Source: Candidatus Omnitrophota bacterium (GTDB lineage Bacteria > Omnitrophota > Gorgyraeia > Zapsychrales > Zapsychraceae). From it: a stretch of DNA of 64,000 nt. The number at the start of each line of letters is the position of its first letter. Position 1 is the first letter of the stretch. The notes under the pieces were generated by a model. The model had not been told where the DNA came from. It searched no databases and saw only the letters and a program-made list of their open reading frames with translations. A program made the translations under genes and the position numbers. Of this stretch, positions 2,662-21,472 are shown piece after piece. The DNA is taken from positions 64,993 to 128,992 of the forward strand of contig JANQMA010000017.1 in assembly GCA_028280285.1 (NCBI GenBank). The letters run 5' to 3'.

Positions 2662-3564
2662 ATGAGTACACAATTCAAACACCTCCAACGCGCTTTTGCG
2701 CGCAATATTTTTTATTGTGCCCGTACGGTTATTAAACACATACCTTATCCCGTCTACCGCGTTATTTCTATTTTCTTTCTGTGGCTTGGATATTTAATCA
2801 TGTACAAACGCCGCACAATTATGAAACATAATCTTGATCTGGCGTATGGTGATTCGATTACCTCCGAGGAAAAAAGAGATATTCTCAATCAATGTTACAA
2901 AAATGTCGGCCAGGGCATGATCGATTTGATTTATTTTATCGATCGGCCTGAAGAGGTGAAAAAACGTGTTAGATTTGAAGGCTGGGAAAATTTAGAAAAG
3001 GCGCTTGAGGGCGGTAAGGGGGTTATTTTTTTAAGTGGGCATTTTGGGATTTTTATTCTGCTTTACATCCGTATGGCACTTGCCGGGCATGAAGCGAATG
3101 TGATCATGCGCCCGGTCCGCGATGATGACCTGGAAGAATACATTACCAAATTCCGTAAGGAAAACGGTATTAATACTATCTACGCCTTACCGCCGATGCG
3201 TTGCGTAACCCAGTGCCTTAAAGCGCTGCGTAAAAACGGTGTGCTTTTTATTTTGCTTGATCAGCATTATGGTTCCGAGGGCGGGGTTAAGGTTGATTTT
3301 TTCGGGCAACCGGCGGCTACCGCCACCGGGCCGGTTGTTTTTAATAGCCGCACGGGCTCGCCTGTCCTGCCGATTTTCATTGTCCGTGAAGGCGAGGGCA
3401 ATTATCACAAAATCGTGATTGAGCCTCCGGTTGATATTCAGGAGCATGATGATCCTCAAGAAAAAATCCGCATTAATATCCAAAACATGTCGGACATTAT
3501 CGAAAAGTATGTCCGTGCCTACCCCCACGAGTGGAGCGGCTGGCTGCATAAACGTTGGAAATAA
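2662..3564 (+). CDS. Lipid A biosynthesis acyltransferase family protein (LpxL/HtrB-like lysophospholipid acyltransferase)
   Basis: N-terminal membrane anchor, FLSGHFG motif region and overall ~300 aa architecture of the lipid A lauroyl/myristoyl acyltransferase family. Confidence 0.5.
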   Translation: MSTQFKHLQRAFARNIFYCARTVIKHIPYPVYRVISIFFLWLGYLIMYKRRTIMKHNLDLAYGDSITSEEKRDILNQCYKNVGQGMIDLIYFIDRPEEVKKRVRFEGWENLEKALEGGKGVIFLSGHFGIFILLYIRMALAGHEANVIMRPVRDDDLEEYITKFRKENGINTIYALPPMRCVTQCLKALRKNGVLFILLDQHYGSEGGVKVDFFGQPAATATGPVVFNSRTGSPVLPIFIVREGEGNYHKIVIEPPVDIQEHDDPQEKIRINIQNMSDIIEKYVRAYPHEWSGWLHKRWK

Positions 3565-3689
3565 CCGTAACCGGCACCGGGTGCGGGCACACCGGTTAGC
3601 TAAAGGTAACTAGGTGGGAAATAATCTATTTCCTACTTGTTATTTATCCCACTATATTGTATACTTACTTAGTGAGACAGGAGGGCATT

Positions 3690-3992
3690 ATGATAAAAAA
3701 AAGTGTTATTAAAGATTCCCATTTTCGGGAGGTTACCGAAGTAAAGACGGATGCCAAAAACCGGATTACTTTAGGAAAAAATCTCAAATGGCCTAAAGTG
3801 ACAAGTTATGTTGTCTACACCAATGATCTTGGACAAATTGTCCTTGATCCGCAGGTGTCTATTCCTGCGTACGAGCAATGGTTGTTCAAAAATAAGAAAG
3901 CCGCCAAAATGGTGTTTGATGGGCTAGAAGATGCAAAGAAAGGAAACTTCGTCGACGCTCCCGAAGATTTTTCCAAGTATTTAGATGATTAA
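3690..3992 (+). CDS. Small protein, putative antitoxin partner of the downstream RelE/ParE-like gene
   Basis: 100 aa ORF; SD AGGAGGG 4 nt before ATG 3690; stop 4 nt before next ORF start (operon arrangement antitoxin-toxin); no family recognised. Confidence 0.3.
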   Translation: MIKKSVIKDSHFREVTEVKTDAKNRITLGKNLKWPKVTSYVVYTNDLGQIVLDPQVSIPAYEQWLFKNKKAAKMVFDGLEDAKKGNFVDAPEDFSKYLDD

Positions 3993-3995
3993 TTT

Positions 3996-4295
3996 ATGTT
4001 CGAGTTAATATTTACTAAAGCGGCCAAAAGGCACTTAAAAGAAATTGAAAAAGATAGTTCAAAAGCAGGATTGTGTCGGCAGGTCAAAAAATCACTCGGA
4101 TATCTTCAGACAAATCCCAGACACCCTTCTTTAAATACTCATCCGTATGAGGCAATCGACAATCCTATTAATCTTCGCGAAAAGGCCTTTGAGGCTTATG
4201 CGCAAAATAACACACCGTCGGCGTATCGTATTTTTTTCTGTTATGGGCCTGATAAAAAGCAGATTACAATCATTGCCATAACCCCGCATCCATAA
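3996..4295 (+). CDS. Putative type II toxin, RelE/ParE superfamily
   Basis: 99 aa, basic; C-terminal pattern YRIFFCYGPDKKQITIIAITPH resembles the YRIIY..d...v.Il.I.hR signature of RelE/ParE toxins. Confidence 0.45.
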   Translation: MFELIFTKAAKRHLKEIEKDSSKAGLCRQVKKSLGYLQTNPRHPSLNTHPYEAIDNPINLREKAFEAYAQNNTPSAYRIFFCYGPDKKQITIIAITPHP

Positions 4296-4361
4296 AAATT
4301 TGCATTTTCCCACCTATATGGCATACTTGCTAGATAATTCCTATTAATATTAGTAAATTTT

Positions 4362-7300
4362 ATGATTATTAAAAGCAGATTAAAAGTTATTATTAATAAA
4401 GTGCTTGTGTCTGTGGTGTTGACGGCTTTTATTATGACAAGCATTGTGCCGGTCAATTTTGCCCAGGCGCAGGTGACACCACCCATGGCCTTGCCGGCGG
4501 TAGGCACACTGGTGCCGTTATCAAGCGCGCACACCCCTGTTCATTTACTTGGCCTTACCGTGAGTCCCGATAATCCGCTTGCCTTTGATTTTTTGATCCA
4601 CTCGGGCGACAATCCGCCGGCCGAACAAACCCTCAAACAAGAAGCCGATACCCTGATCCGTTATTTTTTGGCCTCTTTAACAATCCCTGAAAAAGACATG
4701 TGGGTCAACTTATCCCCGTATGAAGAGGACCGGATCATCGAGGATAATTTTGCCCGGACTGCGATGGGCCGCGATCTGTTGGCAGAGGATTACATGTTAA
4801 AGCAGTTGACGGCATCGCTGCTTTATCCTGACGGCGATATCGGCAAAGTCTTCTGGCGGCGTGTCAGGCAAAAGGCCGAGGCGCTGGGCCTTAAAGATAT
4901 CCCAACCGAAACCTTTCATAAGATTTGGATTACGCCGGAGTCGGCGACTGTTTTTGAAGATGGACAGACGGCGTATGTGGTGGAGTCGAAGCTTAAGGTC
5001 TTGCTGGAAGAGGATTACTTAGCGTACAGCGAACAGCGGATAGCGAATAGTAGTGCTCAGCAATCAGTTGATAACTCTCTAAACGCTAAACGCCATACGC
5101 TAAACGCTGATTTAATGCGCGAGGTCATCATTCCCGAAATTACGCACGAAGTGAACTATGGCGCACACTTCGCCCGCCTGCGTCAAATCTATGGCGCGAT
5201 GGTGCTTGCCACCTGGTTTAAACAAAATTTAAAACAAACGCTGCTCGGGCAAATCTACGCCGATCAAAGCAAAGTCAAAGGCATTGATACAGTTAAAGAG
5301 GACGCCCACAAGCGTATTTACGCCCAGTACATCGATTCAATTAAAAAAGGCGCCTACAACCTGATTAAAGAAGACTATGATCCGGTGGCCCAACGGATCG
5401 TTGCCCGCAAACACTTCTCCGGCGGTTTCGCACCTGATGCCGCGGCCATTACAACCGTTAAGACGGAAAGCCTGAATGCTGCCGATGTAACCACGCAAAA
5501 ACAAATCAACGACTTTGCCTTTAATTTTGATGCGGCTGTTGCGCAAAAGGAAGTTTTTAACGTACAGACATCATTAGCCGAATCTAAAGAAGACCCCGCG
5601 GCGATGAAGGGAGTTATTGATTCAGCAGTAATGAATGTTCAGCAACAAGATGGTGACTACATCACCCAGCTAGATAAGACGGCCGATGCAGCGGGTTTGA
5701 GCCGGAAAATTCAGGATCTACGCACAATGCCGACGGCCACATTGCAGGCCTATTTTAGTATTCTTAAGTCTGACTTTATGACGGGGCGGACAAAATACAC
5801 GTATCGTCAGCATTCGAGTATCCTTAGCGAATACTGGTCCAAACTGTCTGAACATGAAAGTGAGCTGAGTAACGAAAAGTTTTATTTACAAGATCGTGTA
5901 GGCAGATTTCTTGATGTGACTAAATATCTCGAGGATCTGGATCAAAGAGGTATAAAAAAGATTAAATTAAACGGGGTTGATATTTTTCATCATCTATCCA
6001 ATCTAAGCGAGCCTGGATTGAATCAGGAGAAAATGCTCGAGGATATTTTACAAAGCTTTGCCGAACTTAAAATGATTCGTCCCCGCACTGATCCTGATCA
6101 AAATAAGATATCCAACAGCATTGAATTTAAAGAACGTGAAATTAAACACATTTTCCTCGCCAGTCCTGATGTCAACCAATTTGCTCCTCAGGAGCCGCTT
6201 GTGTTGAGTGTCTTGCTCCATCAGGATGGGGATTTTGAGATTGTTGAGGGTTTTGATATTACAAATGAGGATAGCCTGCGTATTGTTCTTGAAAAAGGAC
6301 AGAGGCCGTCTTTTCATTACCCATTGCCGTCAAGGTTAGGGGATTCTATCCGGATCAGCTTAGACCCGAATGATGAAAACAGTTTGGTCTTTGATAGGCT
6401 TGAGGCCCCAACCGAGCTTGTCCATTTTGCCTTAACGGCCGATGCAGCGAGTTTGCATCATTCCGCGCGCGGGAGAATGCGGTTGTCTCTCGATGACTTT
6501 AGTCTATATACCAGCCTATTAAACGAGAATCTGCAAAGCAAATATTTGTGGCATATTATTATTCAATTGGCTCGTCATGATCTACTAACTAAAGGGTTTT
6601 GGAGTAATGTGCTTGATTTTTCTGAGTCTTTTATTGCATATGACGGCCAGGAGTTATTTAATATGTTGAAAGAATCTTTTACCAAGAAGGGTCATCTGTA
6701 TCCTCAAGAATACCTTGCCCACGCGATCAACTCTTTAGCGACCATCAAGCGCCTTGCGCATAATCACTCTAATACATTTGAATTTAAACCGGGCGAGACA
6801 CAAAACATTGTTATGAAGGTCATCGGTAATGATAAAGTTGAGCCCTTTGTCCTGACAGCCCGGTATGACCGACAAAGGCAACAGTTTGCTTTTAAACGCC
6901 CGTCTTCTAATACAGAAGAGGTTGTGTCAATGAATCGCAAACAAATCTTTGAGATTCTGGATTTTTATAGGATTGAGTTGCGTCCTAGGTTGTCAGAGGA
7001 TGGCTGGACAGCAATGCTTGAGATGACTAATGCACACACTTATAGAGAGTTGTTTACCTATGCATTTACGCCACAGTATCCTCTTGTGTCGGTTCCATCT
7101 GGATTACTTTGGGATTATCTGACCTATCTCGGCCAAAACAAACGTAAACTTTATAAAACATTAGGGATTTTCTCTGTCAATGTTTTACTGCCGGTTGTCT
7201 TTGAGGGCCAGAAGTTAAAGGATATTAATTTTGATGGAAAAAATTTACTCTCCTTTGATGTTCGATGGCCGCAATATCAGTTTAGGCCGTTAATGGACAC

Positions 7301-10300
7301 GCTGAAAGAAAAACAACTACATGATCTCAAAAGGAATAGCAATTCAGCTGTTGATACCTACGTGTTTTCTAAAGAAGTTTTTAATAAGTTGGGAATAGTA
7401 AACAGGAGCGATGATTTTCATGCTATTTTTGACACATTGAATAGTCTGCGTTTTGTCAATCACCACCAAAGCAGTAAACAGCATGCACTTATTCCTGTTT
7501 CAGACAAACCAAAGAATGTGCATATTATCCTGAGAGAAAATGAGAACACTCAAAAAGAATTAATGGATGCCACCGTGAGTAAGCTGGCCGATGATTTGCT
7601 TAGCCTAAGTTTTAACGATAAATCTGTAACGGATCTTGTGATTATTCAGGATCAACAAATACGTTTGACAATAGATAACGAAATTACGCTTATTTTACGG
7701 CAGATTAAGGGGAACCTTCAGATTACATACATAACCAATGATCAAAGCATGCGCGATATCTTTCGCTTCACAGTTGGCTTTGATTCGGCGAGTTTGGGCA
7801 AGGAGAAGGATCTTGTTGGTGTGAAAGGGGTTGATGAAGATGCAGAAAATATTACCATCAGTCAATTTTTAGAGAATGCACCAAATACCATGGTGGCGGC
7901 CTTTAAAAACGGGTTTAAAAATAGAACTGATCATTTTGGACTTTTGAAACGTTTAAATAATAATGAAATGACAGCCAAATGGATACTTATGGCCGACAAA
8001 GTTCTGAGAGAGACTGCAGGGGCAGAAATCACCTACAGAGATTTTTCCTTAATAGACTTCTTGAAACAAAAAGGTTTTTCAAAATTGAGGCGTAATACGA
8101 TGTTTAGCCCCGATTTATTTATAACAATGGATGGAAAAAAGTATATTGGTGTATACGTCGGATCAAAAGGACTAAAAAGCACATTGGGTCAATTTTCTTT
8201 GTCTTCGGTTAAACGAAAGTGGTATAAGAAAATTTTACAAATGGATGGCAGCGGATTGGAAGGTATTATTTTATTAATGGATACTGATACGCCTGAATAT
8301 CCTGTACGTGAATTAACACCTATTAATGAGATGAAGGGTTTTTATGCCTTTCCATTATTTGAGAAGGCATTAATAGAAGCTCATCATAGGAAAGATGATT
8401 TAATAGGGTTTCCAAGCCTTTTATATGCTCATAATTTCAATTATGCTGAATCTTATCTTAATGATCTTATTTCGGATGTGCACAATTCTATTGCATTAAT
8501 TTCACGGATTAATTATTTCAGTCCACAGGAGCTGGCAGATTTCAAAAAGGATGTTGCCTATTACGAAGCTCGTGCACAGCAGTATTTAAATTATGCCAAA
8601 GAGGGTTTTAAAGAGCATCGAAAAGTTTTTGATAAATATATTAAAGAGTATAAACAAAGAAAAATTCCGGGTATTTATAAATTAGAAGAAATGATATTTA
8701 CGCGCAATATAGATATAGGTAATGTCCTTGTTACAAGTTTATTTGTATTGCAGACAGCTAAAACTTTAGAGCAGCTGGGATTTGATATTATTGAGTTTGA
8801 AACTAATTTAAATAGATCCACTAAACCGGACATTATCGTGGCAAAAAATGGCAGTAAATATATTGTAGAAGCTCATTGGCGTGAAGTGAGCCAATCTAAG
8901 TTTTTCGAAAGAAATAGTAGGGGATTTAAAAAGCCTTCTCAAAAGAGACGTTATAGACAGTATGTAGATGCGCATTCTGATTTTAAGGGCGTTATTCTGT
9001 CTTCATCATATCGATTTCAAACTCAAAAATCTAATGTAATCTTTAAGCATAAAAACGATGACAAAAGGACAAAAAGAATATTTATAGATATAAGTGATGA
9101 TCAGGATTTAATCGCTAGGAATATTGAACAAAGTTTTGATGAAGAAAGTTTAGGGTATGTAGACCATCAGCTGCTTTCTGATCAGAAGAAAGACGGGTTT
9201 TCTGATTATGCATCCATGTCTGTGATAAACGAAAACTTCTTAAAAGCAAATTTGAAGCCAGGTAAAAGATTAGAAAGTTTTAAGGATAGATTAGCTGATT
9301 ATTTAAATGAACAAATCCTCTTTGTTCAATCAGCAAAATCACGTGAAAAAATTTATGATCAAGTTGATCTGTTTTTAAGTGGTATTGATAGTTTGATTGA
9401 GGAGTATTTTTTAGACTCAATTGATGTGGATGAAATGTTAAGCGAATATGGGAAGGAATTAATGGCAGATCTGATGGCAGCAGGTGGAGTGAAAAGTGTT
9501 CAAGAGGCTGCAGTGCTCTTACAACGTCTTTTGGTTGTTGCTTTTGAGATGAATCATCGTTTTCTTGAGTTTAAAAATAATAATATTAAAGACGCTGATA
9601 CGGCGAAAAGGTATATTGATCAGTTTCTTAATCCAGGTATTTTAGAGCTCGCACGTAGGGCAGAACAGATGTATAAAAAATTAAAAGTGGCTTATGACAA
9701 TTTTTCCGTTATGGAGGAGTCTTATGTTCAAAGGAGAGGCTCAAATGAATCATTTGAACTGATGATAAAACGCTTTAAAGATGCGTTTTTTTCTGAATAT
9801 GGTTCGGAAACAATGCAGAAGGCTAAGGCAAGTTTTTCTAAAGGCGGCGTACTGCAAAAGCTTAGGGATTTTAAGTTTTCAAATGACAAACTTACTCAAG
9901 AGCAATTAGATGTACTTATAGAGTATGAGACAGTAGTGGATGAGATTGATCAAACGTTGCGTCCAATTTCTAAATATTGGGAGATTTTAATCACATTTTA
10001 TAATGACTTTGCTAACGATGTGGGAGCACAAGTAATACCGCTTAATGAAGGCCCATCCGTTTCCGTAAATTTCAACTTTCATAATCAATTTTCAGGTTTA
10101 AGTGGGGAAAGAACTAGTCTTAACGACGCGGCGGGGTTAAGTAAACAGGCGCAAGCTATGACGAAACTATCTCTTGGCCCATTGGAAAGACATTTAGAAG
10201 TTCTTGAAGCCTTTGAAGAGAAAGGTGTTTTAACATACTCTCTGGAAAATTACATGGAAGTTATCACAATGGGGGTAAACCCCAATAAAATAGGGGATTT

Positions 10301-13300
10301 GCTGGCAGCACCATTTTATCAACAAACTGATCATTATTGGGTACGAAACTTTACTCAATTTATTTATGAAAGTGTGGGATTAGAAGAACGTCAATCTGAT
10401 ATTCGATTTAATGCAAAGGAAATTTTTGAAAGGGTGAAATCAGATAGGCTTCTTGATAAAAATATGATAAGTGCTATTTTGAACGATTTGGCTGAGTTTA
10501 AATATATTAAAAATCCCAACTACGCTGATTCTAAAAAGACATTTGCTGATATTGAGTTTAATCCGGGAGAATCAAGACAAATTTTCCTTGTTAACCCGTA
10601 TTCGCTTAATATTTATGAAACTATCACTATTTCACATGATAAGAACTCAGGTAGTTTTGCAATTGCTCCACACGCTAATTATTTTTCTGATGCGGAAAAT
10701 GGGCAAGATGTCGAAAGGGCTATTCTTAAAAAACGGGGTAAAATATCTCATGAATATCGTTTATTGAGATCCCAAGAATTGGGTTATTCAATCCGTATTA
10801 GTTTAAATAAAAAAAATGACAACGCGTTGACGTTTGGAGGTGTCCACCCTAAAAATGGATTATTGATTTTTTCATCTGTGTTTGATGAAGCAAGTTTGGG
10901 GCAGGAGGATGAACCTGCCGACCCGGCGGTCTTGAAACAAAAAGATATTATGCAATTAGCGCATTTCGATCCTGATTTAGTTGCAAGGATTAAAACCAAT
11001 CTTTTTCAGGTATCAGAGGTGCCGGTGATTCGTGATAATCCCGCATTTTCCGTTCCTTTTTCTAAGGAGGATGGGTTTTTTGAGGGGATTAATGATTTAA
11101 AGGCATTGATGTACGCTGTCCAGAAGATGAAGGATTCTCTTGAGAACATAAGCCCGAAGTTAAATGCCGAAGGTGTGGGGCAATTATCCCCAACGATAGC
11201 ATCCATACAAAACGATTTCGATTTTCTTGTTGATGTGCAAAACAGATTGCGCTTGCATGAAGGGGTTACAGATACCATGTTTGTTTATAAAGAAGGGTTG
11301 CAACGGTTAATGGAGATTGTGAAATTTGACAATAGAGGCGATTTGTACGTTGTATACGCGGGTTTAGTCATGACGTATTTGCAGTATAAATATTCTAATA
11401 AAATAATTTACAATGATTTCGATCCAACAGATTCGTTCAAACTTAAAAGATTTTTTGATGTATATTCTATGGCTGACCGGTTTGATTTTCCTGCAACAGT
11501 GGTGCAAACCATTAACGGTATCGGCTCCATTGCAGATAAAATAAAAGTGGTACGCGCACTCAACGCGTGGGCCACCATGCGAACCCTGGCAAAAGGCGAA
11601 CAGACGCCGGTGTATTTTGAAACAGAAACCGGTGAACAAATTAAAACCGTTTATCTCAAACCGATTTCTTTTGATGCTTCAGAGCGCGACAAGCTTTTAA
11701 TGATGGAAGTTAAACGTGATCAATCGAACGTTTATTCTGTTCGCCAAAAGGGAAAAGAAAACTGGCAAGTCATCGAGCAGGATGCCCCGCGGACGTTTGG
11801 CTTAATGGGCGTGCATGTGACTTTTATGATTCAAAAGAAAGTGCTGCATATCGAAAATAATAGCCGGCATATTTTTATAGCTAGTATTTCAGAATCTATT
11901 AATGGAAAGACCTATGATGATGCGATGTTGTCTGAATATGCGGCACGAAAAATAATTTTTAGTGCAAAAGATTTTCTTATTATGAATGAGATTCTTAACC
12001 AGGATTATCCTGATTTGGCCAAACGTCACCGGTCTATGCTGTTTGCGCTTGTGCACGGCACGCCGTTAACTGATATTTGGCTATCTCGTCCGAAAAGATT
12101 TGTTGAACCTAACGCTAATTTCATTGTCGAAGAAGCAAGAGTGCGTGCTGCAGAAAACAGACCGTTTAATATTAGTCCTATAGGCGCAAAAATATATCTT
12201 GGTGTTGATGATAATGAGAAGAAAAAGATCAATCGCAGTTTGGTAGCGGATGTTTTAAATACGTGGGGAACGCTTATTCGCATTCATACTCAAGCAGCGT
12301 ACAGCATTCCTGTGTTTATGGAAGAAGGCGAAACACGCCAACTGTATGTTGTTAACAACGAGACCAAAGAATTTATTAAATTACAGATCAATCAGATGCC
12401 TGGTTATTTTGAAGTTATAGATATAAGCAATGGTAAAGAAGGATATGGTTATTGGGTGTTTCCTGATCATGATACCGAGAACGGAGACAATAAGATTTAT
12501 TTTGCCAATGGAAAAGACTATATCATATTGGATGAGGATCAATTTGATCAGTTATCGGTGATTAATGAAACCAATGCTGATTTGACAGCCTTTGCGGTCG
12601 ATCAAGCAAGTTTGGGCAAGGTAGTTAGAGCTGAAGAGGGTCGTTATGTGATTCAGAAAAATGGGGTTAATGTTTATTCAGATGTTACTGAAAGAGACAT
12701 GATTGACGTTTTTTTTAACAATACACCCGATTTGGAGCGACCAGTAGCTGAGGTGGCATTATATCGAAATAGTCGGGAGGATTATTATATTTCTTGGTGG
12801 GGCGGTTGGGCTATTAATGAAACATCTGTGAATGATCAGTCACAATGGTTTGATTGGAATACAGATAAATCACTTGCTGTTCGAAAAAATAAAATTTTAT
12901 ACAAATATGAATTGGAATCTAAAATAAATAAACTTATTGAACAGCGTTCAGATAGCCGAGAACCTCTCTATATTTTAGATTGGGGGTTTGGGGATGGAAC
13001 TGCTATTGATGAATTAGCACAAAAATTTGAACATATCGAAAACTTGTATTTTATTGGCTATGGAATGACACATGATAGTAAATGGAGTACTTTTGGAGAA
13101 ACTTTTAAACGTAAAAATATAATTATTTTTGATCATATTTGGAAATTAGAAAAACATTTAAAGAAAATTTTGAAAGGTAATAAGCTGGCTCTTGTTTATA
13201 GTCATTTTGGTTTAGCTCACTTATTAAGGGATTATCCAGATGATGCCAGGGAACAAATAAAAACTTTAATGAAGTATATGAAAAATGGAGCATCGCTTAT

Positions 13301-16300
13301 AACCAATTACTATTGGAATGATAGCCTTCCTAGTAAATTTGCAAAAGGATTTAGAAAGAAAACTATTAGCCCAAATACATTCAGTGCGTGGGCGATTGTG
13401 GAGATATTTAATGAAGACGCAGCAAGTTTAGGGCAGGAGGATGAATCTACCGACGCGGCGGGATTAGATATGCTGGCTTATATTATGTCACGGCGTGTGT
13501 TTGATCCGGATATTGCTAAAGAACTTGAAATATTGCATGCCCAATGGGCTAATATCGTTGATCAATTTATAAATACAAGTAAATATAATAAAAAATCTCA
13601 AAGACTGGTAGGGCCGACTGGTTGGACAATGTTCAAACGTTATGGTTTTAATAAAAATAAGGAACTGTATTTGGAATATTTTCAACGTCTGGGGGATGAG
13701 GGAGTCATTGATAGTTTTTCAATAAAGGTTACTGATGGGAGGTTAAAATACTTTGCTCCTGGATTGCATCACCATTCAGCTAGTTTTTTTGGTCAAGAAT
13801 ATGCAACAGATAGTGCGCCTCCGCGTTCTGGAAGTTTTGTTGTGCGCGTTTATGAACCTTTTTCGAAGGAACTAGAGGAAGAGATTAGAAAAATTTTTGG
13901 TGAATTTTTGGCGCAATATGGCAGGACTACTGGATTTGAAAATTTTGTTAAAGATTTTGATGAAGGGGTGATGCCAACAGTTGGTTCACAAATCAAGAAA
14001 AATCCCGGTGAGGCAGAAAATATTAAAAAGGCCTACAATGATGTACGAGATATACTTGTTCGAAAAAACAAAGACTACTGGCAAAAACTTCCGCGTCTTA
14101 TGGCAAGATTACAGCAAATACTTATAAGCGGTATTTATGTAAAAGAAGTAATTCATAAAGATGAAAAAAGGTTTAAGGATGCCCCGCCCGCCCGGATTTA
14201 TGCGTATGGAGATATGGGGTTTGAAGATCCGGTTGCATTTATTCAACATTTAAATAAAACAACACCACTGGTAGCGAAACTACTCTTAGGGGAAACATAT
14301 CTTGATCCAACATCGGGTATTGATATTAATGATCCTAGGATAGCAGAGGTTGTTGAAGAGCAGCCGTACTCTGAACAAGGCAAGCCTATCGATGAGGCGA
14401 ATTTGGGCAAGACGGGCGAATCTACCGATGCAGAACCAGAAAGCTTTGATGAAGAGATAAAGGAAGATAAAGATCAGGCGGCGATAACGGCAGTGGATGT
14501 TCATGGGACGCGTGTGCCAGGCGGTGGTATTATTTGGACAAGGATGCCGGCTCAATATTTTAAAGTTCTTCGGTTGCGTAGAGGAGGGAAAGCATACCTG
14601 CGCGAGTCTTCTATTAAGGGTTTAGTTTTGGAGAACGCTTTAGAACGTTATCGGCACAGTGATACTCCCTTACAAAAGGTTAATAATCATTTAGGAATAG
14701 ATTTGGTTGATGAAATTGTGCAATTAGATCAGTTACGTCAACGTGAGAATGAGCCAAACCGTGTGATTACTGTTTTAGATTGGGGTGGCGGCAGTATGCA
14801 GGCCATTAAAGATATTTTAAACGAATTAAAGGCTCAAAATATTAAAAATGTTCGCTTGATTGGTTCTGGGCATAGTACGTACCTGGAGTGGAAGGATATT
14901 CCGGAGGGGATTGAGGTTATTTGGGATGTGGCACAGAAGCTTCATTTATATATTGCTGAGGGCAGTATTGATATTATTTACAGTCATTATGGGATGTATC
15001 ATTTAGATGAACAATTACCGCAGTATTTGATGTATTTAGAGAAACTTCTTAGTCCTCGAGCAAAAATTTTGATATATCCTTTGGATGGAGATTTATCTGA
15101 GCAGTTACCAGGGTGGAAGTTAGAGATAAAAAGAAAGCATAAGAATATTTCTCGGTTGGATGTTAAGACACATAAGAAAAAATTTTGGTCTGGATTGATT
15201 TCTCGTATGATTTGGCCTGCTTCACAAAGAGTATCAGTCCGTAATTTCGCACCATTTAATTATAGTTATGAATTTACTCCGCCTTCTCGAATATCAATTA
15301 AATCGAAAGGCTCTGATCCGCTTGAGGGCCTTATGATTTCATCTTGGAGTGATACCCCAAAGGAGCGCATCATTTTGCCTAAAAGAAGTATGTCAAGTTT
15401 GCGAAGACGGGTGGGTGGACGTGATTTTGCGAGCCTGGAGCGGAAGGATGAGGCTCAAATCGACGCGGCGGGGTTGGATTTTAATGGAAAATTCTCGATG
15501 GCCAGTTATGGAAATAATGAAACTGATGTGATGAGATTAAATAGAATTACGAAAGGTAAAAGGTTGATTGAGAGAGTGCAACCGCAGCACTTTCGTTTGA
15601 ATAGTGCCGGTGTTAATATTTATTCGAGTTTACAAGATGAGGAAATAATAGACATCCTTTCGATATTAGATAGTGAAAAGATTGCTCGGATAAGACTTAA
15701 TAATCGAAATACTACGACAGACTACCACATTAGCTGGGAAAAACCATGGCGTATGAATCGTACACCACTTGATGCGGTTGATATGTTTGCGGGTCTTAAA
15801 TTTTATGAATTGGAGTCGAGAGTAGAAACTATTATTAATAATCGCCAGGATGACGCTGAACCGATTTATATTTTTGACTGGGGTTTTGGAGCAGGGACCG
15901 CGTTAAAAGAGTTGTCTGAGAAATTTGATAATATTCCTAACATATTTTTTATCGGATTTGGTGACGCTTATTATGAAGATTGGCATACACTGCCGAGTAA
16001 TGTCATTATTATTTACGATCAGGCTTGGAGGCTAGAGGAGCATTTATCAAAAATTCTTAAGGGGCATAAAATTGATCTGGCTTTTAGTCATTGGGCGTTA
16101 TCTTCACACTTTTTAGGTGATTATTTTGGCCCAAAAAGAGTATATTTTTTAAGACTTATGGATTTTCTAAAACCTGGTGCTTCCTTTGTTATTGATGCTC
16201 TGAATGATTCCGGTGCAGAGTTGGGCATTAGACGGGATTTTAATGTTCAAAAAATACCAGTGAGCAACTATTATTTCGGCGATATATTTGAAGTAAAAAA

Positions 16301-19300
16301 TGAAGATTCTAGGAGTTTGGGTAAGGAGGTTGCGGATCAAACCGATGCGGCGGGATTGGGTGAAAGTGTTCAGAATTCAGTGTTCGGTGGTCAGCCGGAA
16401 GAAACTGATGCGGCGAATTTCAATGAGTATTTATTTTTATCACCTGAATTAACGTTGGACTATTTTGTTGCCTTACTATCAAACCTTGGAGATAAGACTG
16501 TTTTATCACTTACAGTATATCTTTTAGCTCCGTATATTGGTGCAGCACAATTGACAGATGAGTTTAAGTTAACAAATCCCTTAGCTAATACTTTATACGA
16601 CGTTGTAGTAGCTCAATTAAAAGAAATGTTCGGTAAGGACGAATTATACCCTATGGATATGAGAGGCTATTTGGATCAATTGCCATTGTTAAGCAACGAT
16701 ATTGGCAAGCATGTTTTGGAATCTCTAGGTAGTGTTAGAGCGATGGTCCATGAGTCTGAGCTTAAACATCAACCACCAATATCAATCGGTGTTGGCCAGA
16801 GCAAAAAGCTTATTTTGGCGGAGCGTTATTATACTGATCAGACTGATATGACGACTATGCATTTGTTGGATGTAACACGACTTTCCTCGAATCAATTTAA
16901 ATTGAAGGCAGAGGGGATAGATAGGCAAATTGATTTGAAGCAAGAGAGTTTAATGGGTTTAGAAATGAATTATTTGGATGAGCAAGGGCAGCCTTTTACA
17001 ATGTCAGTTAAGATGCTGTTTTCGAATAATGGTTTTCAAATTTATTATACCAATGATAACTTGGATTTTAATACTATGATCTTTGCGCTTGATTATGAAT
17101 TGATTAATTTTGTTAATGAAGTTGGTGAGCCAAAGCCTTTTCAAGATAATGCGAGTTTGGATAAGGAGAATGAGTTCCAAACCGACGCGGCGGGGTTGGG
17201 GTCTAGTGATCAGTGGTCCCGCGGTCAGTCGGAGAAATTTGATGCAGCGCGTTTAGATAAACAGCAGCTTAAAAAAATATCAAATAAAGCTCTTGGGAAT
17301 ATGTTTTGGAATGATTTTTATCGGGCATTGCTACTTTTGTTTGATAAATCGATAACATTTTATTCGCAGACAGATAAAGGGATTAAACCTTATGTATGGC
17401 ATAAACTAGTTGAACATGATCCAAGTGTTAATTTATCACTATTTGCCAAGATAGCAGTTCCAGGTTTGGATAACGTACGAGTTATAGACTCGAAATATGA
17501 TTATGTTATGAGTATATTAGACAGTTTTAATCCTTCTGCTGAATCTTTTACAAAATCAATGGAGAGCATCAAAGAGATGCTAGAAGATGATAATCAGCAG
17601 TTGGGGCTGGCTGAAAGTAAGCCGATTGCGCATAGGCATTTAATTCGTAGAGCGCTTTATTATTTTACACGTGAACATGATGAAGCCCGAGAGAATGAAA
17701 AGAAGTTGGTAGAGGTATTTGATTATGGAGCCAAAATTATCAATGAAATCAAACGGCGTAATAATATTGCCCAAAAAACATTAAAATCTCATGGAGTAAT
17801 TGTTGATGCCTCTGGTGCGGCAAAGCTGAATAATGGTGATCGATGGGCAGCCCGCCCTGCTGCTTTGCAGAAAAAACCGGAAACTCGCGTGGTCAGTGAT
17901 CAAAAGAAAGGCGGTGACGCGCTGGATTTGAGTAGAGAGAAATCTTTACAAATGTATCCACGAAAAACCTTATCCAATTTTGATTCGATTATTCATGTGT
18001 TATTTGAAGGATACACCCAAAAATTTCAATCTGGGCAAAATCCAATATTATGGAAAACACATGCAAGAAATTTATTGGAAAACGTAAGTTATTATGTGAA
18101 TGAGCATTTTATTTATCCTGAAGTCGCGATGGATACGTTTGTTAATAAAAATAAAGAATTTATCGAAAAGCTAATTGATGAAGGGAATGAACGCTATCTA
18201 TATTCTGCATTTTTAATTTATAAAGGTTTAGCCACAATGGCGGCTAAAGATTTACGTAACATTGCAGATAGTGATAGGTTGTTTGCTCAGCCACGAAAGA
18301 ATCAGCCGGTTCGAAGCTTTAGAAATCAAGCGCATAAGTTGGCTCCTTTGCGCAGGGAATTAGAGCGATTACAAGGAAGATATGTGGAGTTGCGAGAATG
18401 GGCTGAGTTCAATTTATTTTTCAATGATAAATTTCAGAAAGAATCTCAAATTGTTTATGCTTTTGAACATCATACGCAGAATTTAATTAATGTCGTTGGT
18501 GAGGTTGGTTATGATGGAGCGCTGACCTATGGAGAGGTTGATCAGTATGCTATTCAATTGCAAGGCGATGCTTATATTTTAGAAGGTGTTGTGCGTGTAT
18601 TACATGATATTAAGCTTAAGGTAGAAAGAGACTCTGCGAGTTTGGGTGAGGAGGTTGAGTTCCAAGCCGACGCGGCGGGGCTGGATTTAAAAAATTTAGA
18701 AGAAATTTCTGTTGATGAGATGAAAAAACTATTTAACGCTCTATTTTCAGAAGTTTTTTATGCTTTGTTTGAGGGTACTCTCTGGTCTCATGAATACGAA
18801 AATTATAATGAGATTGTTGAGTATGATTGGGAGAGACACAATGATTTGCATAATGTAAAGAATATTAAAGTTAATATCAATAGTGCTATGACTCTATTTG
18901 CTTTGAGGCCCAACTCGAATAAAGAAATAGACATGGCTCTCAGATCAATTGATAGATTTAAAAATGAACTACGTTTGATTGATTACACGAACCGAGAAAG
19001 TGAGTTAGATAGTTTGTTGGATCAAATGGAGGGATACAAAGATTTTGGTTTAAGTGAAGATGAACCAATTGAGTATGCATTGCTTAAACCACGATTTTTT
19101 TATCAAGCATTGCGTGCAGATCCTAATGCAGATGAGAATAGAATTAAAATGTTTACCAAAGTGAACAATTTAAAGTCTGTTATTAATGAATTTAAACGTA
19201 GACTAGAAATTGAAAAGAAAAATTTAGTTGTTACAGGGTCTGAATCTACCGATGCAGCGGGGTTGAAAAGTATTGATAAGCAAGAGTTGCGTAATATGAC

Positions 19301-20180
19301 CGATGGAGGTGTTGGTAAAACATTACGCGATCATTTTAATGAGTTTTCAAATTTGTTTGAAGCGCAAGTGTGGTCGCCTGGTTTGTATACATTGGCTGTT
19401 AGAGATTTTTCATGGACAGAAATAGTAGAGCATCATAGAGCAGATATGCTGAAAAGTATAGATGGTATTATGAATGGATCACTTAAAAATTTTGAAAATA
19501 TGTCGCAGTTAAAGAATTTTTTATGGTTGGTTTATAATTTTATGACGCAGATCAATATTTATCGCAATTTAGCTTCTTTCGATGAACTATTTGAAGAATT
19601 TTTAGAAAAGATGAAGCAATATAGCGACCGGGGAAAAGAATTTGAGAATCCTACAACATATGACCTTCGAGAAGTTAGATTGATTTATTATGTTTTAAAA
19701 GAAGATGTTAATGCAGAAGAAAACAGAAAAAAATTATCTGATACTTTAGAAAATATTAAAATAATTGTTGAAGAGATTGAACATAGAATTGAGCTTAAAT
19801 ATGAATCATTGAAAAAAAATGGTATGGAAGCTGATAAAGAACTAGATAAAATTTTTGAATCTGTAGAAGATGATTTGGGAGCTTTGACGAATATTAAGAG
19901 CTTCGAGCTTCGAGCTCCGAGCTCCGAAGTAGGTGGTATCGACCTTGACTCCAAACACCTTGACCTTCAAATCAAACGTGATGGGCGTGGTGTGGCGCTG
20001 CCGGTTCACATGCAAGATATTCCGAATATTCAGATCGATGGGCTTTATCCGGTGATTATCAATATCACGCCGGTGACCACCGTGCCGCTTATTTTCAGCC
20101 AAATCCTTGGGGAGCAAGGGGATACAGATCACGCCTCAGTAACAGATTATCCGCAGTTGTCGTATGCCATTAAAGAGTAG
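4362..20180 (+). CDS. Giant secreted/surface protein (5272 aa), modular, with repeated ASLG...DAAGL linker motif and three SAM-methyltransferase-like Rossmann modules
   Basis: Single uninterrupted ORF 15.8 kb; N-terminal signal peptide (hydrophobic core + AQAQV); 12 in-frame linker repeats; repeated modules with (I/V)LDWG(F/G)G(D/A)GT motif I-like sequence. Confidence 0.85.
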   Translation: MIIKSRLKVIINKVLVSVVLTAFIMTSIVPVNFAQAQVTPPMALPAVGTLVPLSSAHTPVHLLGLTVSPDNPLAFDFLIHSGDNPPAEQTLKQEADTLIRYFLASLTIPEKDMWVNLSPYEEDRIIEDNFARTAMGRDLLAEDYMLKQLTASLLYPDGDIGKVFWRRVRQKAEALGLKDIPTETFHKIWITPESATVFEDGQTAYVVESKLKVLLEEDYLAYSEQRIANSSAQQSVDNSLNAKRHTLNADLMREVIIPEITHEVNYGAHFARLRQIYGAMVLATWFKQNLKQTLLGQIYADQSKVKGIDTVKEDAHKRIYAQYIDSIKKGAYNLIKEDYDPVAQRIVARKHFSGGFAPDAAAITTVKTESLNAADVTTQKQINDFAFNFDAAVAQKEVFNVQTSLAESKEDPAAMKGVIDSAVMNVQQQDGDYITQLDKTADAAGLSRKIQDLRTMPTATLQAYFSILKSDFMTGRTKYTYRQHSSILSEYWSKLSEHESELSNEKFYLQDRVGRFLDVTKYLEDLDQRGIKKIKLNGVDIFHHLSNLSEPGLNQEKMLEDILQSFAELKMIRPRTDPDQNKISNSIEFKEREIKHIFLASPDVNQFAPQEPLVLSVLLHQDGDFEIVEGFDITNEDSLRIVLEKGQRPSFHYPLPSRLGDSIRISLDPNDENSLVFDRLEAPTELVHFALTADAASLHHSARGRMRLSLDDFSLYTSLLNENLQSKYLWHIIIQLARHDLLTKGFWSNVLDFSESFIAYDGQELFNMLKESFTKKGHLYPQEYLAHAINSLATIKRLAHNHSNTFEFKPGETQNIVMKVIGNDKVEPFVLTARYDRQRQQFAFKRPSSNTEEVVSMNRKQIFEILDFYRIELRPRLSEDGWTAMLEMTNAHTYRELFTYAFTPQYPLVSVPSGLLWDYLTYLGQNKRKLYKTLGIFSVNVLLPVVFEGQKLKDINFDGKNLLSFDVRWPQYQFRPLMDTLKEKQLHDLKRNSNSAVDTYVFSKEVFNKLGIVNRSDDFHAIFDTLNSLRFVNHHQSSKQHALIPVSDKPKNVHIILRENENTQKELMDATVSKLADDLLSLSFNDKSVTDLVIIQDQQIRLTIDNEITLILRQIKGNLQITYITNDQSMRDIFRFTVGFDSASLGKEKDLVGVKGVDEDAENITISQFLENAPNTMVAAFKNGFKNRTDHFGLLKRLNNNEMTAKWILMADKVLRETAGAEITYRDFSLIDFLKQKGFSKLRRNTMFSPDLFITMDGKKYIGVYVGSKGLKSTLGQFSLSSVKRKWYKKILQMDGSGLEGIILLMDTDTPEYPVRELTPINEMKGFYAFPLFEKALIEAHHRKDDLIGFPSLLYAHNFNYAESYLNDLISDVHNSIALISRINYFSPQELADFKKDVAYYEARAQQYLNYAKEGFKEHRKVFDKYIKEYKQRKIPGIYKLEEMIFTRNIDIGNVLVTSLFVLQTAKTLEQLGFDIIEFETNLNRSTKPDIIVAKNGSKYIVEAHWREVSQSKFFERNSRGFKKPSQKRRYRQYVDAHSDFKGVILSSSYRFQTQKSNVIFKHKNDDKRTKRIFIDISDDQDLIARNIEQSFDEESLGYVDHQLLSDQKKDGFSDYASMSVINENFLKANLKPGKRLESFKDRLADYLNEQILFVQSAKSREKIYDQVDLFLSGIDSLIEEYFLDSIDVDEMLSEYGKELMADLMAAGGVKSVQEAAVLLQRLLVVAFEMNHRFLEFKNNNIKDADTAKRYIDQFLNPGILELARRAEQMYKKLKVAYDNFSVMEESYVQRRGSNESFELMIKRFKDAFFSEYGSETMQKAKASFSKGGVLQKLRDFKFSNDKLTQEQLDVLIEYETVVDEIDQTLRPISKYWEILITFYNDFANDVGAQVIPLNEGPSVSVNFNFHNQFSGLSGERTSLNDAAGLSKQAQAMTKLSLGPLERHLEVLEAFEEKGVLTYSLENYMEVITMGVNPNKIGDLLAAPFYQQTDHYWVRNFTQFIYESVGLEERQSDIRFNAKEIFERVKSDRLLDKNMISAILNDLAEFKYIKNPNYADSKKTFADIEFNPGESRQIFLVNPYSLNIYETITISHDKNSGSFAIAPHANYFSDAENGQDVERAILKKRGKISHEYRLLRSQELGYSIRISLNKKNDNALTFGGVHPKNGLLIFSSVFDEASLGQEDEPADPAVLKQKDIMQLAHFDPDLVARIKTNLFQVSEVPVIRDNPAFSVPFSKEDGFFEGINDLKALMYAVQKMKDSLENISPKLNAEGVGQLSPTIASIQNDFDFLVDVQNRLRLHEGVTDTMFVYKEGLQRLMEIVKFDNRGDLYVVYAGLVMTYLQYKYSNKIIYNDFDPTDSFKLKRFFDVYSMADRFDFPATVVQTINGIGSIADKIKVVRALNAWATMRTLAKGEQTPVYFETETGEQIKTVYLKPISFDASERDKLLMMEVKRDQSNVYSVRQKGKENWQVIEQDAPRTFGLMGVHVTFMIQKKVLHIENNSRHIFIASISESINGKTYDDAMLSEYAARKIIFSAKDFLIMNEILNQDYPDLAKRHRSMLFALVHGTPLTDIWLSRPKRFVEPNANFIVEEARVRAAENRPFNISPIGAKIYLGVDDNEKKKINRSLVADVLNTWGTLIRIHTQAAYSIPVFMEEGETRQLYVVNNETKEFIKLQINQMPGYFEVIDISNGKEGYGYWVFPDHDTENGDNKIYFANGKDYIILDEDQFDQLSVINETNADLTAFAVDQASLGKVVRAEEGRYVIQKNGVNVYSDVTERDMIDVFFNNTPDLERPVAEVALYRNSREDYYISWWGGWAINETSVNDQSQWFDWNTDKSLAVRKNKILYKYELESKINKLIEQRSDSREPLYILDWGFGDGTAIDELAQKFEHIENLYFIGYGMTHDSKWSTFGETFKRKNIIIFDHIWKLEKHLKKILKGNKLALVYSHFGLAHLLRDYPDDAREQIKTLMKYMKNGASLITNYYWNDSLPSKFAKGFRKKTISPNTFSAWAIVEIFNEDAASLGQEDESTDAAGLDMLAYIMSRRVFDPDIAKELEILHAQWANIVDQFINTSKYNKKSQRLVGPTGWTMFKRYGFNKNKELYLEYFQRLGDEGVIDSFSIKVTDGRLKYFAPGLHHHSASFFGQEYATDSAPPRSGSFVVRVYEPFSKELEEEIRKIFGEFLAQYGRTTGFENFVKDFDEGVMPTVGSQIKKNPGEAENIKKAYNDVRDILVRKNKDYWQKLPRLMARLQQILISGIYVKEVIHKDEKRFKDAPPARIYAYGDMGFEDPVAFIQHLNKTTPLVAKLLLGETYLDPTSGIDINDPRIAEVVEEQPYSEQGKPIDEANLGKTGESTDAEPESFDEEIKEDKDQAAITAVDVHGTRVPGGGIIWTRMPAQYFKVLRLRRGGKAYLRESSIKGLVLENALERYRHSDTPLQKVNNHLGIDLVDEIVQLDQLRQRENEPNRVITVLDWGGGSMQAIKDILNELKAQNIKNVRLIGSGHSTYLEWKDIPEGIEVIWDVAQKLHLYIAEGSIDIIYSHYGMYHLDEQLPQYLMYLEKLLSPRAKILIYPLDGDLSEQLPGWKLEIKRKHKNISRLDVKTHKKKFWSGLISRMIWPASQRVSVRNFAPFNYSYEFTPPSRISIKSKGSDPLEGLMISSWSDTPKERIILPKRSMSSLRRRVGGRDFASLERKDEAQIDAAGLDFNGKFSMASYGNNETDVMRLNRITKGKRLIERVQPQHFRLNSAGVNIYSSLQDEEIIDILSILDSEKIARIRLNNRNTTTDYHISWEKPWRMNRTPLDAVDMFAGLKFYELESRVETIINNRQDDAEPIYIFDWGFGAGTALKELSEKFDNIPNIFFIGFGDAYYEDWHTLPSNVIIIYDQAWRLEEHLSKILKGHKIDLAFSHWALSSHFLGDYFGPKRVYFLRLMDFLKPGASFVIDALNDSGAELGIRRDFNVQKIPVSNYYFGDIFEVKNEDSRSLGKEVADQTDAAGLGESVQNSVFGGQPEETDAANFNEYLFLSPELTLDYFVALLSNLGDKTVLSLTVYLLAPYIGAAQLTDEFKLTNPLANTLYDVVVAQLKEMFGKDELYPMDMRGYLDQLPLLSNDIGKHVLESLGSVRAMVHESELKHQPPISIGVGQSKKLILAERYYTDQTDMTTMHLLDVTRLSSNQFKLKAEGIDRQIDLKQESLMGLEMNYLDEQGQPFTMSVKMLFSNNGFQIYYTNDNLDFNTMIFALDYELINFVNEVGEPKPFQDNASLDKENEFQTDAAGLGSSDQWSRGQSEKFDAARLDKQQLKKISNKALGNMFWNDFYRALLLLFDKSITFYSQTDKGIKPYVWHKLVEHDPSVNLSLFAKIAVPGLDNVRVIDSKYDYVMSILDSFNPSAESFTKSMESIKEMLEDDNQQLGLAESKPIAHRHLIRRALYYFTREHDEARENEKKLVEVFDYGAKIINEIKRRNNIAQKTLKSHGVIVDASGAAKLNNGDRWAARPAALQKKPETRVVSDQKKGGDALDLSREKSLQMYPRKTLSNFDSIIHVLFEGYTQKFQSGQNPILWKTHARNLLENVSYYVNEHFIYPEVAMDTFVNKNKEFIEKLIDEGNERYLYSAFLIYKGLATMAAKDLRNIADSDRLFAQPRKNQPVRSFRNQAHKLAPLRRELERLQGRYVELREWAEFNLFFNDKFQKESQIVYAFEHHTQNLINVVGEVGYDGALTYGEVDQYAIQLQGDAYILEGVVRVLHDIKLKVERDSASLGEEVEFQADAAGLDLKNLEEISVDEMKKLFNALFSEVFYALFEGTLWSHEYENYNEIVEYDWERHNDLHNVKNIKVNINSAMTLFALRPNSNKEIDMALRSIDRFKNELRLIDYTNRESELDSLLDQMEGYKDFGLSEDEPIEYALLKPRFFYQALRADPNADENRIKMFTKVNNLKSVINEFKRRLEIEKKNLVVTGSESTDAAGLKSIDKQELRNMTDGGVGKTLRDHFNEFSNLFEAQVWSPGLYTLAVRDFSWTEIVEHHRADMLKSIDGIMNGSLKNFENMSQLKNFLWLVYNFMTQINIYRNLASFDELFEEFLEKMKQYSDRGKEFENPTTYDLREVRLIYYVLKEDVNAEENRKKLSDTLENIKIIVEEIEHRIELKYESLKKNGMEADKELDKIFESVEDDLGALTNIKSFELRAPSSEVGGIDLDSKHLDLQIKRDGRGVALPVHMQDIPNIQIDGLYPVIINITPVTTVPLIFSQILGEQGDTDHASVTDYPQLSYAIKE

Positions 20181-20330: not shown

Positions 20331-20636
20331 ATGATTATTTTACAAGAGATTTTAGCTGATAGCAAAAAGCATTATCAAGAAGTCCGAAAGAAAATTCTCA
20401 AAAATCTTTCTTCGCTTCCCCAGGGGAGTGTCAAAAAACGTAAGATTTCTAAGCGTATCTATTATTATCTCCAACAGAGGGTCGGTTCTAAAATTATTCA
20501 TAAATATTTAGGTAAAGAAGAGCCGGAGGAGTTAATTAAAGAGTTAAAATTACGTAAGTCTTTGAAAGCTGAGCTTAAAAAAGTCGATGAGGCTTTAAAG
20601 GTTATACAAAAAGTCCAAGGCAAAAAGTATGGATAA
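20331..20636 (+). CDS. Small basic protein (cassette 1 gene A), possible antitoxin/regulator partner
   Basis: SD AAGGAG 9 nt upstream of ATG 20331 (ORF-track GTG 20322 less likely); 8-nt overlap with the following gene; lysine-rich C-terminus. Confidence 0.4.
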   Translation: MIILQEILADSKKHYQEVRKKILKNLSSLPQGSVKKRKISKRIYYYLQQRVGSKIIHKYLGKEEPEELIKELKLRKSLKAELKKVDEALKVIQKVQGKKYG

Positions 20637-21358: not shown

Positions 21359-21472
21359 GCGCCGGTGACCACCGTCCCGCTTATTTTTAGCCAAATTCTT
21401 GAAGATCAACAGGATACAGATCACGCCTCGGTGACGGATTATCCGCAGTTGTCGTATGCGATTAAAGAGTGA
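21359..21472 (+). pseudogene. Displaced duplicate of the 3' end of the giant gene (last ~37 codons, no start codon)
   Basis: ~90% nt identity to 20068..20180; encodes APVTTVPLIFSQILEDQQDTDHASVTDYPQLSYAIKE* versus native PVTTVPLIFSQILGEQGDTDHASVTDYPQLSYAIKE*; 8 synonymous vs 3 nonsynonymous differences. Confidence 0.7.

Follow-up and report, generated by a model that had tools for sequence, protein, structure and literature searches.

A repeated junction motif in a giant, putatively exported Omnitrophota protein appears to be a genome-specific variant of a family-wide motif

A short in-frame repeat that recurs through a giant open reading frame (ORF) of Candidatus Omnitrophota bacterium marks, on strong evidence, the junctions between modules of the encoded protein, and we read it as a genome-specific variant of a motif that runs through a whole protein family and is under selection at the level of the peptide. 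Within that family, which is specific to the Omnitrophota, modular and furnished with Sec-type export signals, the form D-x-A-M marks almost every joint. The DNA analysed, hereafter the window, is a stretch of 64,000 nucleotides (nt; GenBank assembly GCA_028280285.1, contig JANQMA010000017.1, positions 64,993 to 128,992 of the forward strand), and all nucleotide coordinates below are positions in it. The giant ORF lies at 4362-20180 on the plus strand and encodes 5272 amino acids (aa); its product matches the database protein P0121 identically, in a singleton 90% cluster.

An earlier note on this DNA had listed 12 in-frame copies of a repeat of about 50 nt. An in-frame motif is indeed present at all 12 positions, but only five of them hold the full element. 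Read codon by codon, this is a bipartite unit, D-x-A-S-L-G-(K/Q/E)-E followed by 4-6 mostly acidic residues and then (T/A/I)-D-A-A-G-L, and its two halves are forms of a single unit, D-x-A-(M/S/G)-L. Beside the five full bipartite sites there are two degenerate bipartite sites and five half-sites, with four variant sites beyond the earlier list. The sites are as follows.

5436-5606, plus strand: weak DxA cluster just after the N-terminal domain (N-domain), with DAAA (5436), DAAV (5529) and DPAAM (5592; a new variant site)
5682-5699, plus strand: half-site ADAAGL at the start of module M1a, aa 441-446
6441-6455, plus strand: variant unit DAASL closing the block that is paralogous to M4, aa 694-698, missed by the earlier note
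7782-7799, plus strand: half-site DSASLG, aa 1141-1146
9138-9155, plus strand: weak half-site DEESLG, aa 1593-1598, also missed
10122-10139, plus strand: half-site NDAAGL at the start of module M4, aa 1921-1926
10884-10934, plus strand: degenerate bipartite junction DEASLGQEDEPADPAVL, aa 2175-2191, DEASLG..ADPAVL
11916-11930, plus strand: canonical family-type unit DDAML within the 572-aa stretch M5, aa 2519-2523, also missed
12600-12617, plus strand: half-site DQASLG, aa 2747-2752, followed by the methyltransferase-like module M6
13416-13466, plus strand: full bipartite junction DAASLGQEDESTDAAGL, aa 3019-3035
14391-14438, plus strand: degenerate bipartite junction DEANLGKTGESTDAEP, aa 3344-3359, DEANLG..TDAEP
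15423-15476, plus strand: full bipartite junction DFASLERKDEAQIDAAGL, aa 3688-3705
16305-16358, plus strand: full bipartite junction DSRSLGKEVADQTDAAGL, aa 3982-3999, beginning at the end of the modelled M9 methyltransferase fold
17145-17198, plus strand: full bipartite junction DNASLDKENEFQTDAAGL, aa 4262-4279
18630-18683, plus strand: full bipartite junction DSASLGEEVEFQADAAGL, aa 4757-4774
19248-19265, plus strand: half-site TDAAGL at the start of module M13, aa 4963-4968

Two copies that had been described as double owe this to an additional DAA(N/R) 19-21 aa downstream, namely TDAAN at 16404-16418 (DAAN from 16407) and FDAARL at 17238-17255 (DAAR from 17241). The pattern D.A[SGM][LGM] occurs 18 times in the giant ORF against 0.57 expected, with a maximum of 5 in 2000 shuffles. 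Two DNA cores, searched with up to three mismatches, give eight and seven matches against 0.06 and 0.03 expected from shuffles, all in the same ORF and frame, and a six-frame scan confined the peptide motifs to the giant ORF and its frame. To call the DNA core "nearly identical" between copies was nevertheless an overstatement, since the pairwise identity of the 54-57-nt copies ranges from 44 to 81% and the longest exact run in common is 17 nt.

That the motif sits at module boundaries is apparent from the protein itself. When the protein was divided at the motifs and the pieces were compared with each other, several proved to be paralogous: M1a with M4 (aa 442-696 with 1922-2177), M6 with M8 and M9 (aa 2750-3021 with 3347-3690 and 3691-3984), and M11N with M12 and M13 (aa 4265-4478 with 4760-4963 and 4964-5157). 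The aligned cores share 22-44% aa identity, and the alignments begin and stop at motifs. The flanking modules had been thought unlike one another; the motif is certainly far better conserved than they are, but several of them are recognizably related at the identities just given. Module M9 (aa 3691-3984) was also modelled, together with its two linkers. The model is of low confidence overall, with a mean predicted local distance difference test score (pLDDT) of 48; its confident core (segment residues 153-323) matches class I S-adenosylmethionine (SAM) methyltransferases (Foldseek E about 1e-6, probability 1.0). The last residue of this core is the Asp with which the following linker begins. 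In M9, then, where the comparison of predicted module boundaries with linkers that the earlier note had proposed was run, the two coincide. Both the paralogous blocks, which start and end at motifs, and the M9 fold, which ends at a linker, therefore place the motif as a linker between modules. The alternative that it is an ordinary acidic linker, unrelated to domain boundaries and unconserved, does not describe what we find: the motif is tied to boundaries and recurs in relatives. No strict orthologue was found. Searches of all pieces of the giant protein against Pfam and NCBIfam returned nothing but a sub-threshold Pfam methyltransferase match, and an exhaustive HMMER scan of aa 3680-4790 against 1.84 billion representatives returned only the protein itself and matches to the methyltransferase module; the remaining modules are orphans.

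The ends of the giant protein place it in a large family. More than 1000 proteins, almost all of them labelled Omnitrophota or Omnitrophica, align with its first 360 or so residues at 43-52% identity, and a scan of one genome per species gave at least 588 family loci, often several per genome, with many invariant columns; 22 of 78 retrieved loci adjoin another family member. It is this distribution of homologues that places the DNA in the Omnitrophota. The architecture comprises a signal peptide, an N-domain of about 320 aa (..WVNLSPYE..DYxLKQ..YFSGG), a variable cargo and a C-terminal domain (C-domain) with GGIDL..P(V/I)I.NI.P, in proteins of about 400 aa to more than 3700 aa; P0124, with the same architecture, has 5358 aa. 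The giant protein shares the hydrophobic signal and N-domain, the GGIDL C-domain and the reiterated short junction motif, and its terminal features are these.

4362-4475, plus strand: signal peptide or signal-anchor, with a positively charged N-terminus (KSRLK..NK), a hydrophobic core and NFAQA-Q (A-x-A type site)
4476-5432, plus strand: conserved family N-domain, aa ~39-357, ending ..RKHFSGG
19902-20177, plus strand: family C-domain, aa 5181-5272, GGIDLD..LQIKRDGRGV..GLYPVIINITPV.., common to members of every size

The signal-peptidase site was assigned by reading the sequence rather than with a prediction tool. Apart from the N-terminal hydrophobic segment, the sole segment resembling a transmembrane (TM) helix is a borderline one in the C-domain, and the signal-anchor-like N-terminus with its positive-inside flank predicts that the bulk of the protein is exported. 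The N-domain matched no Pfam or NCBIfam model and no fold in the PDB. Its coding region has a G+C content of 45% (window 4001-6000), like the housekeeping neighbours, while the module part (8001-20000) has 34-40%; the N-domain codons are rich in C, with GGC for 80% of Gly and GCC for 47% of Ala.

The cargo of the relatives is diverse. Signalling and modifying domains (kinase, NUDIX, methyltransferase, HAD, CheY receiver and PP2C) occur along with M48 peptidase and phosphoribosyltransferase (PRTase), and so do malate synthase, isocitrate lyase and class I aldolase, all of them enzymes of central metabolism. Cargo of this last kind stands behind the family's signal peptide and N-domain in locus L010 (aa 862-1090, 2283-2474 and 3248-3547, the last being the aldolase) and in other relatives, some with Pfam tags that point to phosphoglucose isomerase and proline dehydrogenase; such enzymes are unexpected in exported proteins.

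Across 120 homologues, D-x-A-M occurs 77 times downstream of the N-domain against 5.1 expected, a 15-fold excess, and it clusters within about 50 aa after the N-domain and 5-28 aa ahead of the C-domain. It is the top gapped 4-mer of long family members, with 16 occurrences in P0124, and some genomes use other cores: E-x-A-M (L063), S-D-x-A-V-L-G (L028) and [SA]-S-P-[VLI] (L039, L019 and L056). The choice of core goes with the genome, DxAM being present in all four of the loci of SMAG_U7936, DxAV in both of those of CA_2019_TPBF_141, and SSPx in two loci each of SRP128015_co1_466 and ERP119705_244. In the relatives the motifs tightly flank recognizable Pfam domains and none falls inside one. 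The L010 aldolase lies between DxAM at 3180 and 3590, SSPV or SSPL stands 4-8 residues ahead of receiver-domain position 1, ExAM stands 21 aa ahead of PP2C, and a PRTase and a methyltransferase are enclosed by SDxAV sites. Tandem doublets account for 13 of 182 motif spacings (25 aa or less).

The earlier note had treated the motif as peculiar to the giant ORF. Judged by pattern and position, DxASLG/TDAAGL is instead probably the variant of the family-wide DxAM that belongs to this genome. P0031 has DQASL in place of the usual DxAM ahead of GGIDL, and the nearest likeness that we found to the bipartite linker is in P0122, with IDNASLDQSQDNAADTL and IDNAQ..EDNAQ between two methyltransferase modules. 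The variant itself has no orthologue or second carrier in genome contigs searched with peptide patterns, in a protein search with aa 3010-4300, in proteins and metagenome contigs searched with the linker alignment, or in metagenome contigs searched with the exact two-part DNA pattern; the profile search that the earlier note had recommended thus found no carrier beyond the giant ORF in protein or metagenome collections.

The HMMER scan also led to a second family of giant proteins (P0125, P0149, P0159, P0172, P0173 and P0175; 2700-6800 aa), matched solely via the methyltransferase module. These have a different N-terminal domain with a ..QDAH.. motif and a junction motif of their own, (R/K)(S/A)E(M/V/L/I)R, which occurs 8-14 times per protein in four of them and only twice in P0172, while P0149 has G(A/S)RM five times in its place. 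The existence of a second giant family with an unrelated RSE[MVL]R junction motif points to a general principle of punctuation, and it may be that giant modular proteins of bacteria generally carry short junction motifs specific to their lineage.

The motif is uniform over unrelated cargo and among the paralogues of one genome and diverges between genomes, which suggests a trans-acting reader that co-evolves with it. The signal is a tandem pair of D-x-A-(S/G)-L units with a short acidic spacer. In the mechanism we favor, it would lie in a hydrophilic, exposed linker, with the fold of the next module starting a few residues on, and a factor that co-evolves with the motif genome by genome would read it at the protein level. 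That reader would most likely be a processing protease, a serious possibility if something short of an even chance; it would cut the exported precursor into separate modules in the manner of a polyprotein, at or beside the small residue (D-x-A | M/S/G-L). We also entertain, more tentatively and as somewhat doubtful, the broader picture of a class of Omnitrophota exported polyproteins with dozens of paralogues per genome, a maximum length of at least 5,000 aa, unrelated enzymes and a genome-specific punctuation code, whose modules a co-evolving protease would free outside the cell or in a host.

Several observations weigh against this interpretation. Cleavage at the junctions is our best guess from the sequences. 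Neither Pfam nor NCBIfam finds a protease domain in the giant protein, and no protease gene recurs as a neighbour over 78 family loci. Within the giant protein no motif stands directly before the C-domain, and some stretches between motifs are 452-702 aa long, so its punctuation is incomplete. The variant is represented by one family member from this genome (n=1), the model of the module with its linkers, from which linker disorder would be predicted, has the low mean pLDDT given above, and the codon identity of the linkers exceeds what selection on the peptide alone would produce.

This last point is the basis of a different explanation, namely that the linkers are recombination joints, whose in-frame DNA would provide short homology for gene conversion and for the deletion, duplication or swapping of modules and would be homogenized within a genome by concerted evolution. 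The claim of DNA-level conservation in the earlier note stands to this extent, that the codons are more alike than the peptide needs. Linkers of the giant gene use the same codon in a fraction of 0.593, against 0.371 expected from ORF usage and 0.352 from the housekeeping genes of the window, and none of 5000 simulations reached this value (p<2e-4); housekeeping codon usage is thereby ruled out as the cause. As a control, residues that are the same in two paralogous module cores were compared; their codons agree in a fraction of 0.433, where 0.438 is expected by chance, so synonymous sites between duplicated modules are saturated and the linker excess cannot be left from recent duplication. 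The G+C content at third codon positions (GC3) is 0.67 in the motif against 0.34 for the ORF, as expected of GC-biased conversion, and the sharing of genome-specific variants by paralogues, the high degree of paralogy in a family often arranged in tandem and with many types of cargo, and the duplication of modules within the giant gene would all suit recombination as well.

Even so, we regard recombination joints as unlikely. RecA-dependent exchange usually requires roughly 20-30 nt of exact homology, more than the longest exact run of 17 nt among copies that are 44-81% identical, and the proposal that these are intragenic recombination sites is unsupported insofar as it calls for efficient homologous recombination. 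The codon bias, moreover, is selective. Ser is AGT in eight of nine linker codons (26% in the ORF), the second Ala is GCG in nine of nine (26%), Thr is ACC in five of five (22%), Lys is AAG in five of five (31%) and Glu is GAG in six of six (40%), whereas the codons for Gly, Asp and Leu show free variation at the third position. Among the relatives, the synonymous codons of the motif are at chance in six of the eight proteins tested, each from another genome, so selection there is on the peptide. At 133 DxAM sites of loci L001-L078 there is an excess of G or C in the third position of three codons next to the ATG, those for x, Ala and the residue at +4 (z 4.6, 5.6 and 4.7); the Ala is GCG in 67 cases against 38 expected, and flanking codons are as expected. 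As this preference is limited to three motif codons and recurs in unrelated genomes, some of the codon signal belongs to the motif whatever the lineage and is not a product of concerted evolution, which favors selection at the codon level over local homogenization. The linker DNA is thus shaped by more than selection on the peptide, be it through gene conversion or through selection on the codons. Under the reading we favor this extra similarity would be secondary, reflecting either occasional gene conversion between in-frame linkers or the family-wide preference for G/C-ending codons around the motif.

A passive structural role, in which the motif would be a flexible acidic spacer and capping element that was passed on by duplication and retained because it helps solubility or spacing, with nothing to read it, strikes us as rather improbable. 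The acidic, hydrophilic context and the low confidence of this region in the model are what such a spacer would show, and modules duplicated within the gene would bring their linkers along. A core of 4-6 residues, however, is nearly invariant between modules that have diverged to 22-44% identity or beyond detection, and the same core stands between unrelated cargo domains in hundreds of proteins; nor would a passive linker be expected to be uniform among the paralogues of a genome and to differ between genomes.

The motif might also be bound and left uncut, serving as a short linear docking or export motif for a chaperone, a secretion component or the protein's own N- or C-domain, which would keep the modules unfolded or tethered. 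The observations on genome-specific variants shared by paralogues and on selection for the peptide apply here too, as does the placement of the motif immediately before each module and before the C-domain, and frequent tandem doublets are what is seen in avidity-type motifs. A non-cleaving adaptor of this sort suits the data equally well in kind. With no conserved neighbouring gene over 78 loci to serve as a candidate partner and an N-domain whose fold is uninformative, we give docking a slim chance.

Finally, a signal at the level of translation, by which the Shine-Dalgarno (SD)-like RAGGAGG that the first half-site always makes would pause the ribosome at each joint and so aid folding or coupling to export, is very improbable, as there is no SD-like enrichment around DxAM at the 133 family junctions and the linkers have neither RNA structure nor an Rfam match. 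What speaks for it is that the choices for Lys and Glu are invariant, though AAA and GAA dominate the ORF, and yield RAGGAGG with the result that four of the six AGGAGG hexamers of this 15.8-kilobase ORF fall in linkers; the genes of the window use AGGAG-type ribosome-binding sites, and the family-wide excess of G/C-ending codons in three motif codons (z 4.6-5.6) is in line with it. Ribosome pausing at internal SD-like sequences is itself disputed. The AGGAGG words in linkers are at 10903, 13435, 16324 and 18649 (also 7800 and 17163), and they arise because Lys/Gln-Glu is always (A/C)AG GAG, followed by G. None of them has a start codon in frame at a usable distance, which, with the absence of SD enrichment at the family sites, excludes internal initiation of translation. 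An RNA element, which the earlier note had offered as a candidate, is ruled out as well: the folding of five copies, a check that it had suggested, was no better than that of shuffles (z -1.23 to +0.46), and Rfam had no match in the window.

The preferred reading, a junction signal cut by a protease, has partial counterparts in known systems. Vibrio MARTX toxins carry inter-effector linkers with a small Leu-containing site that is cut by an internal cysteine protease domain (CPD). The giant protein resembles them in its very large size and apparent export, its conserved ends around a string of unrelated enzyme modules and its short linkers. It differs in that Pfam and NCBIfam find neither a CPD (Peptidase_C80) nor RTX or glycine-rich repeats, its motif bears no relation in sequence to the MARTX site, a Sec-type signal is present at the N-terminus, and no type I secretion genes lie beside the ORF, whose neighbours are housekeeping genes (gltD-like, panB, lpxL, glyS and ppdK). 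In polymorphic toxins, the junction motifs VENN of CdiA and PxxxxDPxGL of Rhs mark the boundary for processing and cassette exchange. Here too a short conserved motif separates a constant part from variable cargo in many paralogues, and DAAGL and ADPAVL of the giant protein are superficially like DPxGL. The motif in our case, however, is found at many internal joints rather than at a single one, there is no RHS/YD, FHA or PT-VENN match, and the cargo of the Omnitrophota relatives includes ordinary metabolic and signalling domains; no immunity-like gene was recognized downstream of the giant ORF, where a nucleotidyltransferase gene and toxin-antitoxin pairs are found instead. Lacking the defining features, the giant protein belongs to neither the MARTX nor the Rhs/CdiA group.

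Viral polyprotein sites, such as those of picornavirus 3C and potyvirus NIa, are short, are present at each junction, are lineage-specific and co-evolve with the protease. The genome-specific junction variants described here are similar, in a setting that is bacterial, chromosomal and exported and with cleavage as a proposal. Big exported surface proteins, too, may be cut as directed by short motifs in disordered stretches: Mycoplasma hyopneumoniae P97/P102 is cut at S/T-X-F|X-D/E, and the Porphyromonas gingipain/HagA polyproteins are cut at Arg or Lys. There is no sequence relationship to the motif described here; the RSE[MVL]R motif of the second giant family would suit an Arg-specific enzyme, as in gingipain/HagA processing. 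We also considered the Bacteroidota-type O-glycosylation sequon, D-(S/T)-(A/I/L/V/M/T), and rejected it, as the second position is S in only three of ten first half-sites and, across the family, may be occupied by A, K, Q, S, F, H or R.

The Omnitrophota are uncultured ultra-small bacteria, probably host-dependent, with giant genes that have no assigned function. Very long ORFs with few recognizable domains have been described from the phylum before, in giant proteins of the Archaeovorin and dockerin types, which exceed 30,000 aa and have many TM helices, C39/S8 peptidase, SecA or dockerin domains, and for which post-translational cleavage has been proposed (bioRxiv 10.1101/2023.11.21.568195; PMC10066038); one of the papers states that the cleavage points are unknown. 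The present protein is of a different kind, its 5272 aa including one hydrophobic segment, at the N-terminus, and none of the domains just named. Neither the N-domain/GGIDL family nor its junction motif is mentioned in these two papers or in a 2026 preprint, and we found no description of either in the searchable literature, including work on giant Omnitrophota proteins; that a very large family of exported proteins, itself without annotation, is punctuated by a motif whose form depends on the genome is thus something that we have not found described.

Its practical value is a rule by which giant Omnitrophota proteins can be split at the motifs into modules for structure prediction and annotation. 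The reiterated motif also makes the processing of giant proteins directly testable, as it names exact peptide bonds to seek in metaproteomes, and its co-variation over genomes is a handle on the reader, whether protease or adaptor. If cleavage is true, this would be a bacterial polyprotein strategy on a large scale, and the code would be the key for cutting giant Omnitrophota proteins in silico into functional units; central metabolic enzymes behind a secretion signal are odd in themselves.

Some further observations concern the surroundings of these genes. Over the 78 family loci no secretion gene recurs as a neighbour, and only further family paralogues and CheY-like genes do. In an independent short-read assembly of the same DNA (Logan contig, SRR20820735; locus L080, 7590-8321) the giant gene is fragmented, the contig ending about 730 nt into it, and protein catalogues built from short reads are likely to contain too few genes of this sort. 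A stretch of 111 nt that ends the giant ORF (20068-20178) is repeated 1.29 kilobases downstream (21360-21470) at 89% identity, with a small ORF and an NTP_transf_8 nucleotidyltransferase gene (20629-21309) lying between the copies. The genes between 20322 and 22909 include RelE-like/helix-turn-helix (HTH)-antitoxin and DUF6290/ParE-like pairs and are followed by glyS; it looks as if a toxin-antitoxin cassette had inserted at the giant gene's 3' end and duplicated its target. Farther along the window, at 45693-49970, an ORF of 1425 aa, in which TIGR02232 (myxo_disulf_rpt), a cysteine-rich acidic repeat, is matched four times, encodes another large, probably extracellular protein.

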